Positions 39,992 to 53,892 of a DNA stretch of 64,000 bases are shown piece after piece. Origin of the DNA: Gallionella sp. (GTDB taxonomy: Bacteria; Pseudomonadota; Gammaproteobacteria; Burkholderiales; Gallionellaceae). How positions within the stretch are numbered: position 1 is the stretch's first letter; every line of letters starts with the position of its first letter. The notes under the pieces are model-generated. The model had not been told where the DNA came from, made no database searches, and saw only the letters and a program-made list of their open reading frames with translations. The translations under genes and the position numbers were made by a program. The stretch lies in NCBI GenBank assembly GCA_028687335.1, contig JAQUAI010000005.1:49972-113971 (forward strand). The letters are read 5' to 3'.

Positions 39992-40018
39992 TAAAGTTTT
40001 CCTAAGTGGTGTCGATAA
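39992..40018 (+). promoter_or_regulatory. Sigma28 (FliA) promoter
   Basis: TAAAGTTT-N11-GTCGATAA versus consensus TAAAGTTT-N11-GCCGATAA (1 mismatch, exact spacing). Confidence 0.85.
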
Positions 40019-40024
40019 CGTAAG

Positions 40025-40108
40025 CAAGAGTGCTGAGTTTGACCCCTTGCAAACCAGCAGTCCGTAACAACCCTCCGCTTACCCCCTTGGGCGGAGGGTC
40101 TCTTTTTT
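40025..40108 (+). ncRNA. Candidate sigma28-dependent sRNA with two C-rich loops
   Basis: Promoter upstream; hairpin 40031-40059 (loop ACCCCTTG); terminator hairpin 40070-40099 (loop ACCCCCTT) plus T6; no ORF. Confidence 0.65.
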
Positions 40109-40127
40109 GTAGGGGGAATTCCTACAA
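40107..40127. promoter_or_regulatory. TTGTAGG-N7-CCTACAA palindrome upstream of flhDC (candidate regulator site)
   Basis: Perfect 7-bp arms; an extra CCTACAA half-site at 40143-40149. Confidence 0.55.
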
Positions 40128-40285
40128 GACGATTCTCTCTCGCCTACAAAAAAAACGGCGACCTTCTAATTTCATTGCATCCCATGTTCCGAAATAATGC
40201 GACCGTCGAATCAAGGCGTAGCAAGGGGTAGCAAAATTGTCCTGATTCGGTTCTCGTTCTTAACTAGCTTAACAAGGGGGCTAAA

Positions 40286-40603
40286 ATGAACACAATGCAA
40301 CTGCAAGAAGGTATCCGTGAAATAAATCTGTCCTACCTGATGCTGGCTCAGCAGATGGTGAAAGAGGATAGACCCGCCGCGATTTATCGCTTGGGCATCA
40401 GCCAAGATATGGCCGATGTGATCGAAGGACTTTCTCCCGCGCAAATTATCAAAATGGCCGCATCCAATATGCTGCTGTGCTGCTTCCGCTTCGATGACAG
40501 CCTACTGTTTAATATGGTGACCGATTACAGCAAGGACAAGCTGATGGCGAAGGCTCATTCGGCTATCCTGATGTCAGCACAACCTGTCGCCGAATTAGCT
40601 TAG
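40286..40603 (+). CDS. flhD: Flagellar master regulator FlhD
   Basis: IREINLSYLMLAQ, YRLGIS and LCCFRFDD. Confidence 0.95.
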   Translation: MNTMQLQEGIREINLSYLMLAQQMVKEDRPAAIYRLGISQDMADVIEGLSPAQIIKMAASNMLLCCFRFDDSLLFNMVTDYSKDKLMAKAHSAILMSAQPVAELA

Positions 40604-40612
40604 AGGTGGCGA

Positions 40613-41161
40613 GTGGCAACTAAAACGGTAATCGGTGAAGCACAAGAGGTCGGCCTCGCTATTGAGCTGATCGAGCTGGGTGCCCGTTTACAGTTGTTAC
40701 AGGAAGAAACATCGCTGAGTCGTGAGCGTTTGTTGCGGCTATATAAGGAAGTCAAAGGTGAATCTCCCTCCAAGGGGATGCTGCCGTACTCGACCGACTG
40801 GTTTTTGAGTTGGCATGCCAATATTCACTCGTCACTTTTTATGGATATTCATCACTTCCTCGTTAAAAATGCGGGAATAGATGGTGTGCGTGCGCTGATT
40901 ACCGCGTATCGGCTGTATCTCGATCAAGTACAAGGTATCGAAAATGGTGAAGCGGTATTGAGTGTTACGCGCGCTTGGTTTTTGCTACGCTTCTTTAAAG
41001 CAGGTATGTTGCAATTCGTGCAGTGCAAAGAATGTGGCGGGCAGTTCGTTAGCCATGCCGACGATTTGCATAATGATTACGTCTGCGGTATTTGCCATCC
41101 TCCCGCTCGTGCTGGCAAAACTAAAGCCAGTAAAAATCTTGCCGAGTCCTCGTCGAGCTAA
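40613..41161 (+). CDS. flhC: Flagellar master regulator FlhC
   Basis: LGARLQ, KGMLPYSTDWF and Zn finger CKEC...CGICHPPARAGK. Confidence 0.96.
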   Translation: MATKTVIGEAQEVGLAIELIELGARLQLLQEETSLSRERLLRLYKEVKGESPSKGMLPYSTDWFLSWHANIHSSLFMDIHHFLVKNAGIDGVRALITAYRLYLDQVQGIENGEAVLSVTRAWFLLRFFKAGMLQFVQCKECGGQFVSHADDLHNDYVCGICHPPARAGKTKASKNLAESSSS

Positions 41162-51726: not shown

Positions 51727-53892
51727 CTATTTGATGCGCATGCCAGGTTGTGCGCCGTCATCCGGCGACAAGATGAACAAGCCCGGTGTCTCGCCAGAAG
51801 CAGCCAGCACCATGCCTTCGCTCATGCCGAACTTCATCTTGCGCGGAGCAAGGTTGGCTACCATCACCGTCATGCGGCCTTTCAACTTCTCGGGATCGTA
51901 TGCCGACTTGATGCCAGCGAATACGGTGCGCGGATTCTCTTCGCCGATGTCCAGCGTCAGCTTCAGCAACTTCTCTGCGCCTTCCACGTGTTCTGCGTTA
52001 ACGATATGCGCCACGCGTAAATCGATCTTGCTGAATTCATCGATGCTGATGGTCTCAGCGATAGGGGCGATGGCAGGTTTTGCGACGGCAGTGGATTCGG
52101 TCATGGATTTCAAACTTTCTTGGTTGGCAGCGATCATGCCTTCGATGAGTTTAGGATCGAGGCGGGTGAGTAAGTGTTGGTAAGTGTTGATGCGATGTCC
52201 GTCAGGTAGTAGATGAAACGCATCTGGCCATTGCAAGGCTGGGATGTTAAGGGTGGTTTCAACCTGCGCAACTAATTTTGGCAGTACTGGCTTGAGATAA
52301 AGCGATAGCAAACGGAAGCAATTTACGGCAATGCTGCACACCATTTTTAAATGGTTTTCTTGATCATTCTGCTTGGCGATTGCCCACGGTTTTTTATCGG
52401 CAATATAAAAATTAACTTCATCAGCTAATTTCATGATTTCTCTAAGAGCCTTAGCAAAATCTCGTTCTTCGTAATGTTGCGCTATTGCGAGTGATGCCTG
52501 AGTCAGTTGATAGGTAATAGGGTCAAGATGATCGTCTTCACTGGCAATATTGCCATTACCTATGAGCACCCCTCCTAATTGCCCGCCAAGTTTTTCAATG
52601 AACCCCATGGTTCGGCTCGCGATGTTGATGTACTTGCCGATGAGGTCGCTATTCACTTTGGCAACGAAGTCATCGAGATTGAGGTCGAGGTCTTCCATCG
52701 AGCCATTCAATTTGGCGGCGTAGTAGTAACGCAGGTATTCGGTGTTCTTGATGTGGTCGATGTAGCTGCGCGCGGTGATGAAGGTGCCGCGTGATTTGCT
52801 CATCTTCTCGCCGTTCACCGTGAGGAAGCCGTGCGAGAAAAGTTTGGTCGGTGTGCGGAAACCAGCGTGTTGCAACATCGCAGGCCAGAACAGGGCGTGG
52901 AAATACAGGATGTCCTTGCCGATGAAGTGGTACAGCTCTGTGTCTGAACCTGGCTTCCAGTACTCGTCGAAATTCAAAGGCGTAAACCCCTCCCCAGCCC
53001 TCCCCTTATCAGGGGCGGGAGCGGACGGCTCCTCCCCTGATAAGGGGAGGTTGGGAGGGGTTTGGTTTTGTTTGTTGCACAGTTGTTTGAAGCTGCCCAT
53101 ATAACCGACAGGCGCATCCAGCCACACATAGAAATATTTGCCCGGTGCATCAGGAATCTCGAAGCCGAAGTAAGGCGCATCGCGTGAGATGTCCCAGTCG
53201 GTCAGTTTGTTCTCGCCTTCCGCGCCCAGCCATTCCTGCATCTTGTTCGCTGCTTCGTTTTGCAGCGAACCGCTACGTGTCCATTCGCGCAAGAACTGTT
53301 GGCAGGAGTCGGCAGATAGCTTGAAGAAGTAATGGTCAGAATTGCGCAGTTCAGGTTTTGCGCCCGATACCGCAGAGAATGGCTCGATTAGGTCAGTGGG
53401 CGCATACGCAGCACCGCACACTTCGCAGTTGTCGCCGTACTGGTCTTTGGCATGACACTTCGGGCATTCGCCCTTGATGAAGCGGTCCGGCAGGAACATG
53501 TTCTTGACTGGGTCGTAATACTGCTCGATGGAGCGCACCTCGATGAGATTCTCAGCCTTCAGCTTGCGGTAGATGCCTTGCGCGAATTCCTTGGTCTCGT
53601 TCGAGTTGGTCGAGCCATAGTTGTCGAACGCCACATGGAATGCCGCGAAATCGTCGTAGTGTTCTTGCCATACGCGAGCGATGAGTTGCTCGGGTGTGAT
53701 TCCTTCGTTATCGGCGCGCAACATGATGGGGGTGCCGTGGGTGTCGTCGGCGCACACGTAGTGGCAGGTGTTGCCGCGCATCTTCTGAAAGCGTACCCAG
53801 ATGTCTGTCTGGATGTATTCGACGAGGTGGCCGAGGTGGATGCTGCCGTTGGCGTAGGGCAGGGCGGATGTCACTAATATCTTGCGGGTCAT
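51727..53892 (-). CDS. metG: Methionine-tRNA ligase
   Basis: [12 protein letters not shown], Zn knuckles, KMSKS and C-terminal tRNA-binding domain; probable start MTRKIL at 53892. Confidence 0.98.
52984..53063. repeat. Palindromic REP-like element inserted in frame in metG
   Basis: AAACCCCTCCC..CTCCCCTTATCAGGGG / CCCCTGATAAGGGGAG..GGGAGGGGTTT; encodes [26 protein letters not shown]. Confidence 0.9.

Follow-up and report, generated by a model that had tools for sequence, protein, structure and literature searches.

The window analyzed here is a 64,000-nucleotide (nt) stretch (C15:49972-113971) of a Gallionella metagenome-assembled genome (MAG) that is 2.4 Mb in size and 88.5% complete. The flagellar master operon flhDC lies on its + strand (40286-41161) and consists of flhD (40286-40603) and flhC (40613-41161), followed by motA and motB. 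The two products are assigned to their Pfam families with E-values of 6.9e-44 (FlhD) and 2e-82 (FlhC). Upstream of flhD, and on the same strand, is the element that is the subject of this report. It comprises a promoter of the sigma-28 (FliA) type (39992-40018) and a predicted small RNA (sRNA) of about 84 nt (40025-40108) with two hairpins, for which flhDC is the proposed target operon. Comparison with related genomes indicates that this element is a real, conserved, and structured RNA gene with a FliA-type promoter.

The promoter has a -35 box TAAAGTTT (39992-39999), an 11-nt spacer, and a -10 box GTCGATAA (40011-40018), and matches the consensus TAAAGTTT-N11-GCCGATAA at 15 of 16 positions, with one mismatch. 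It is the sole FliA site with no more than one mismatch in the window; the chance expectation for FliA sites with up to three mismatches is 0.46. Among the eight relatives compared, both promoter boxes are invariant and the spacer is variable, a pattern typical of promoters on which selection acts. In addition, a FliA promoter is present upstream of flhD at most Gallionellaceae and Ferrovum loci. Judged by such comparative criteria, the FliA promoter is real. Genes for FliA (scoring over the NCBIfam cut-off) and for Hfq are both present in the same genome.

The predicted RNA would start 6-9 nt past the -10 box and end at a U-tract. The segment 40025-40110 folds with -36.2 kcal/mol, compared with -21.1 +/- 3.0 kcal/mol for shuffled sequences (z -5.0; none of 200 shuffles is as good). 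Hairpin 1 (40028-40062, + strand) displays the loop ACCCCUUG (40042-40049), which is the proposed seed. The second hairpin belongs to a predicted intrinsic terminator (40070-40108, + strand) with a 12-pair stem (40070-40099), the loop CCCCCU (40082-40087), and a U-rich tail (40101-40108). The sequence UCUCUUUUUU at 40099-40108 stands directly after the stem and provides a U6 tail, and a terminator scan also calls this hairpin (40070-40099). Both loops are exposed, with unpaired probabilities of 0.85-1.0, and contain the motifs ACCCCTTGC (40042-40050) and CCCCCTTG (40082-40089). Homologs measure 131-146 nt across the aligned stretch, which extends from the promoter to a palindrome following the terminator, and their insertions and deletions are not multiples of three. 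At the level of sequence, the predicted RNA has the features of an sRNA, namely its own promoter, a stable 3' hairpin with a U-tail, and non-coding character.

Two sites in the flhD leader are complementary to these loops. The upstream site GCAAGGGGT (40221-40229, + strand), located 65 nt before the flhD ATG, is a 9-nt complement of loop 1 with a duplex energy of -18.6 kcal/mol. The second site is the flhD Shine-Dalgarno (SD) sequence CAAGGGGG (40273-40280, + strand), which ends 5 nt before the ATG at 40286. It is complementary to loop 1 over 7 nt and to the terminator loop over 8 nt (duplex energies of -13.6 and -16.9 kcal/mol, respectively). A sequence-only reading of this stretch had described a near-consensus FliA promoter, about 85 non-coding nt that fold into two hairpins (the second being a terminator with a T6 tail), and two loop motifs with both of their complements in the leader. 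The motif positions, the fold, and the terminator scan bear out all of these points.

This arrangement suggests an sRNA that depends on FliA and represses flhD translation, creating a negative feedback from class 3 to class 1 of the flagellar cascade. An even chance of being correct is assigned to this proposal. RNA polymerase with FliA (sigma-28) would transcribe the RNA of about 84 nt, and transcription would end at the RNA's own intrinsic terminator. The C-rich loop CCCCUUG of hairpin 1 would then pair with the G-rich flhD SD and block ribosome loading. With FlhDC presumably standing above FliA in this organism, completion of the hook-basal body would render FliA active, and FlhDC synthesis would be turned down.

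The region was found by BLAST in seven Gallionella genomes among 40 relatives, upstream of flhDC every time. A covariance model (R1) built from these sequences, spanning the promoter through the palindrome, matches 68 of 151 Gallionella genomes and 66 of 151 Gallionellaceae genomes, the latter representing 13 of 18 genera. There is one locus per genome and occasionally two tandem copies. Of the 151 Gallionella genomes sampled, 93 have flhD; R1 has a match in 67 of these 93 genomes versus one of the 58 genomes that lack flhD, and this sole R1-positive genome without flhD is a fragmented assembly. At all loci examined, the element is located 226-420 nt upstream of the flhD ATG and on the same strand, and the gene further upstream of it is not conserved. 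No Rfam family (Rfam 15) is matched by the window (E up to 10, noise only) or by four homologs (gathering level). The element is new as an RNA family, in agreement with the sequence-only reading, which did not recognize it as a described one.

Conservation of the structure is evident from an alignment of 92 homologs. This alignment was fitted to the model, which favors structure, but the margin is large nonetheless: 89.7% of cells are paired, compared with 34-51% when the partners are slid by 1-3 columns. Double-sided changes, the kind of stem covariation that had been suggested as a check on the prediction, occur in 23 of 24 pairs, and none of 500 shuffles reaches the observed values. Helices 1-5, of which helices 1-3 form hairpin 1 and helices 4-5 form the terminator, all vary with compensation. 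In Gallionella, almost no variation is seen in the apical sequence UUGACCCCUYGCAAAC, which includes the hairpin-1 loop core CCCCUYG. Moreover, the T-rich tail after hairpin 2 is kept throughout Gallionella and Sideroxydans. A sigma-70 promoter within hairpin 1, with TTGACC as its -35 box, was also considered and was dropped because a conserved -10 partner was not found.

The complementarity between the first loop and the flhD SD is likewise conserved beyond the window. For 71 non-redundant homologs with a C-rich first loop, the longest perfect complement was determined between the apical region and positions -25 to +3 of flhD. It is 4-6 nt in 28 genomes, 7 nt in 17, 8 nt in three, 9 nt in three, 10 nt in 11, 11 nt in six, and 12 nt in three; a complement of at least 7 nt is found in 43 of the 71 homologs and one of at least 9 nt in 23. 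At one locus of genus g27 (L149), the match extends to 15 nt with the untrimmed RNA. The loop and SD partners differ among lineages, with the pairs GUCCCCUUGCA / UGCAAGGGGAC in genus g26, GUCCCCUCGC / GCGAGGGGAC in Sideroxydans (including a complete genome taken as S. lithotrophicus ES-1), AGCCCCCUUGUA / UACAAGGGGGCU in g29, and UCCCUUGC / GCAAGGGA in one Gallionella genome. The g26 and g29 types are set apart by compensated changes, in which both partners differ at three flanking positions. The mean complement is 7.1 nt for cognate pairs and 6.1 nt for non-cognate pairs; none of 5000 permutations reaches the observed mean, although this test is inflated by the relatedness of the genomes. The hairpin-1 loop and the flhD SD represent a conserved accessible seed with a conserved target site, and these comparisons indicate that selection has very probably acted on the first loop for pairing with the ribosome-binding site of flhD.

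The second loop and the second site fared differently. The sequence-only reading had proposed that two loops act on two leader sites and that loops and targets would be co-conserved in relatives. Both loops and both sites are present in the window, and co-conservation holds for loop 1 with the flhD SD, but not for the terminator loop or the upstream 9-nt site. A C-rich terminator loop is restricted to the window's genome and a few relatives; elsewhere this loop is free to differ, and it was rejected as a conserved seed. The upstream site occurs in one of the 71 genomes and was rejected as a conserved second target. The 9-mer GCAAGGGGT has 13 copies in the window's genome (4.8 Mb, both strands), with about 3e-4 expected per 125-nt leader. 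The 9-nt site at -65 and the 8-nt match between the terminator loop and the SD are statistically unexpected, yet lineage-specific, and these extra pairings appear to be a local reinforcement in the window's lineage. As for the anticipated covariation of loop and SD, the complementarity is conserved, reaching 9-15 nt in several genera, but the phylogeny-aware test described below did not add to it.

Several observations weigh against flhD repression by a terminated RNA, and three other explanations account for some of them. A first group concerns the specificity of the pairing. In a large Gallionella clade, the loop CCCCUCG faces an SD of the form (C/U)AAGGG(G), in which a C.A mismatch limits perfect pairing to only 4-5 nt. 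On the flhDC tree, the co-change of U/C in the loop with A/G in the SD amounts to three independent contrasts, for which a sign test has no power; the SD follows the loop in about one of the three and never changes in the opposite direction. Among 15 lineage representatives, the mean complement is 8.2 nt for cognate versus 6.1 nt for non-cognate pairs, but just one of the 15 rows has its cognate partner as the strict best, which is explained by the conservation of the SD region of flhD itself. Within the window's genome, the 7-mer CAAGGGG is common: it has 259 copies, and of the 20,799 candidate starts about 40 carry it in the SD position. When these 20,799 starts are ordered by duplex energy, flhD takes only rank 257. 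Judged from this genome alone, the 7-nt SD match is unremarkable, and it becomes significant only through its conservation in relatives.

The modest rank of flhD would fit a genuine FliA-dependent sRNA that carries a generic anti-SD loop and has its main targets elsewhere, the flhD match being secondary or incidental. The pairing of CCCCU with AGGGG is indeed generic, with AGGGG in the SD position before 288 candidate open reading frames (ORFs) of the window's genome, and non-cognate loop/SD pairs still reach the 6.1-nt average given above. Furthermore, the 8-nt loop-1 complement CAAGGGGT occupies the SD position of flhA (G000:C2:3533) and of a chemoreceptor gene (G000:C27:3015) in this genome. 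A conserved flhA target would have proved action in trans. However, the flhA start regions of ten relatives, which served as a negative control, have only 3-6 nt of complement to the loop, and flhA was rejected as a second conserved trans target. The flhD matches of 9-15 nt in five or more genera extend well past the generic core, and the RNA is missing from genomes without flhD. The 10-mer of Sideroxydans is nearly unique, with 2-7 copies per genome and, in one genome, copies only in the sRNA loop and the flhD SD; a third copy in ES-1 sits within a coding region and was rejected as a target. An sRNA acting mainly on other genes is considered clearly improbable.

A second group of observations concerns lineages with a reduced element. 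In the loci L039-L050 (Ferrigenium and some Gallionella MAGs), which have the closest FlhD proteins, the promoter and hairpin 1 have been lost, and the terminator and/or palindrome are kept together with the same CAAGGGGG SD. The occurrence of this SD in lineages without hairpin 1 implies that the SD was not shaped by the RNA. The persistence of the terminator and palindrome without the promoter and hairpin 1, as in L049, may also be explained if the element has no RNA function at all, such that the FliA promoter provides positive feedback on flhDC, the terminator acts as an insulator, and the loop-SD match is coincidental. The Ferrovum/Ferrovaceae loci (L098-L111) are compatible with this explanation as well: they keep a FliA promoter, a terminator-like hairpin, and the palindrome about 250 nt ahead of flhD, but their first hairpin lacks a C-rich loop and any convincing SD complement. 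The Ferrovum form may be an older or diverged version of the element. Given that the hairpin-1 stem covaries, that its loop is conserved, and that the complementarity tracks lineage-specific changes, an absence of RNA function is regarded as highly improbable. In a variant of this explanation, the complementary sequences would function at the DNA level, as inverted repeats that serve either a protein or the inversion of a promoter segment; this was rejected, as more than 100 loci all have a single orientation and no recombinase gene is adjacent.

A third group concerns termination and transcripts. In genus g26, where the complementarity is longest, the U-tract after hairpin 2 is poor. For ES-1, the RNA evidence consists of assembled contigs from four RNA-seq runs of one study, in which ends, strand, and single transcripts are not readable. 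These contigs indicate that the region is transcribed, i.e., present in the RNA libraries. Contigs that start at 577, 582, and 587 in three runs cross the T-tract (619-626) into flhD and flhC, from which it follows that read-through or a long leader exists there. In two runs, the contigs over the promoter and hairpin 1 stop at 580, and no contig connects hairpin 1 with sequence past 580; the uncovered stretches (351-560 in two runs; 580-599) are not readable as absence of RNA or as RNA ends. The bridging contigs and the weak U-tract of g26 favor a cis-acting leader, the alternative already named in the sequence-only reading, in which the FliA promoter or read-through from upstream would give a long flhDC transcript. 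Hairpin 2 would then be an attenuator or a stabilizing 5' structure, and the hairpin-1 loop would sequester the SD intramolecularly or after processing between the hairpins. That the element always adjoins flhDC on the same strand agrees with such a leader, and covariation cannot separate action in cis from action in trans.

Other features are difficult to reconcile with a leader of this kind. The terminator in the window is canonical, with a 12-bp stem and U6. Tandem second copies, each with its own FliA promoter, are found in some g26, g27, and g29 genomes (L149 in G176, L151 in G178, and L133, L136, and L138 of g26), and the upstream copy at L149 consists of one anti-SD hairpin with U7 immediately after it, which would make it self-terminated. 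The tandem copies and the canonical terminator were counted in favor of trans action, as were the T-rich tails of Gallionella and Sideroxydans and the presence of hfq. In addition, the DNA that separates the terminator from flhD contains invariant palindromes as well as a -10-like box, which suggests a separate flhDC promoter. No antiterminator pairing as an alternative to the terminator, and no sensor, was apparent by eye in the alignments, in which no systematic search was made, and the contigs that support a leader cannot show single transcripts or RNA ends. A cis-acting leader is considered unlikely, though it keeps appreciable weight. FliA-dependent repression in trans may also be one part of a broader picture, which is put forward tentatively and at somewhat less than an even chance. 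This would be a family-wide RNA feedback by which the FliA tier silences FlhDC translation, acting both as a terminated sRNA and as a read-through, cis-acting anti-SD leader, with tandem copies in some genera and extra sites in the window's lineage.

The palindrome TGTAGG-N7-CCTACA is located at 40108-40126, with a third CCTACA half-site at 40143-40148. It corresponds to helix 6 of the alignment, the sequence of which is almost invariant with few compensatory changes. Because of this invariance, helix 6 is read as a DNA regulator site rather than as RNA. The same palindrome also occurs upstream of flhDC in Ferrovum and Nitrosomonas, and its conservation suggests that it is probably the DNA site of a dimeric flhDC regulator, outside the RNA. 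A second perfect copy in the window's genome (G000:C10:40600-40618, L165:2001-2019) is situated about 75 nt ahead of an ORF that resembles ilvA (threonine dehydratase). Another palindrome with the same 6-N7-6 geometry, AATCGG-N7-CCGATT, is found between the first palindrome and flhD. It is present in relatives such as L137, L100, and L042, about 60-90 nt before the -10-like box of flhD, shows symmetric changes (GATCAG/CTGATT) in one lineage, and is degenerate in the window (about 40152-40172).

A scan of the window's genome (2.4 Mb) for the FliA consensus revealed six sites with no more than one mismatch. Two of these precede flgK and flgM, one is the promoter at 39992-40018, and the remaining three lie before the genes of an ABC/C39 exporter and an ALTTAQ-repeat protein and before a 90-aa ORF without a known family. 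The sites before the C39-peptidase ABC exporter and the ALTTAQ-repeat protein (G000:C13:5188-5214 and G000:C11:26990-27016, respectively, both on the - strand) have one mismatch each, and from these motifs the two genes are possible non-canonical members of the FliA regulon. The flagellin gene fliC is preceded by a site with two mismatches. Within the window, a weaker FliA-like site on the - strand (52394-52420; TGAAGTTA-N11-GCCGATAA, two mismatches) is located near the metG region and may be due to chance.

Comparable regulators are known from other bacteria. Escherichia coli has four sigma-28-dependent sRNAs, namely UhpU, MotR, FliX, and FlgO, which resemble the Gallionella RNA in their FliA promoters, Hfq-type base-pairing, and feedback on the flagellar regulon (Melamed et al., 2023; PMC10578931). 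However, these four derive from untranslated regions (UTRs) of mRNAs, whereas the Gallionella RNA has a gene of its own next to the proposed target, and they have no sequence or Rfam relation to the Gallionella element. None of the four pairs with flhD, and UhpU raises FlhDC via lrhA (PMC10578931), an effect that is indirect and opposite in sign to the one proposed here. Several other E. coli sRNAs (ArcZ, OmrA, OmrB, OxyS, McaS, and AsflhD) do pair with the flhD 5' UTR, but are not driven by FliA (PMC10578931). They share with the Gallionella RNA the post-transcriptional control of the master operon through pairing to the flhD leader. Nevertheless, they are stress- or envelope-driven, are encoded elsewhere (except for the antisense AsflhD), and are not homologous to it. 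These E. coli sRNAs import outside signals, whereas the Gallionella RNA would close a loop within the cascade. In Campylobacter jejuni, the sRNAs CJnc230 and CJnc170 are linked to tiers of the flagellar hierarchy, and one of them is FliA-dependent (PMC11187230). That hierarchy is of the RpoN/FliA type and lacks FlhDC. The C. jejuni sRNAs target flgM and a regulator, not the SD of a master operon, and there is no sequence relation.

Likeness in design is also seen outside flagellar control. The Burkholderia anti-hemB RNA (RF02837) is likewise an sRNA from Betaproteobacteria in which a terminator follows a hairpin with a C-rich loop, but membership of the Gallionella element in this family was rejected, as the match covers the terminator hairpin only (15.3 bits versus a gathering threshold of 49.5, E 1.2). 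In Firmicutes, the exposed CCCC loops of RsaE/RoxS pair with G-rich SDs, and one such RNA may have more than one C-rich loop. The likeness of RsaE/RoxS to the Gallionella RNA is mechanistic only, since RsaE/RoxS belong to another phylum and have other regulators (redox/nitric oxide) and a central-metabolism regulon, and the Gallionella element has no Rfam hit. A literature search found no paper on regulatory RNAs in Gallionellaceae.

How flagellar synthesis is stopped after completion is much less understood than how it is started. In enteric bacteria, feedback onto FlhDC is made by proteins, including FliT, FliZ, and YdiV, and the sigma-28-dependent sRNAs known so far have other points of action within the regulon. 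The element supplies a new RNA family model for genome annotation, and the prediction is easily testable in E. coli, which has the same FliA consensus, through a short pairing that can be mutated. If the proposed repression is true, the Gallionella RNA would be an RNA counterpart of the enteric protein feedbacks and a plausible means for polar flagellates to limit flagellar number. An sRNA that couples the translation of flhD directly to FliA activity would give the textbook cascade a new wiring, and its hosts, the Gallionellaceae, are environmentally important iron- and nitrite-oxidizing Betaproteobacteria.

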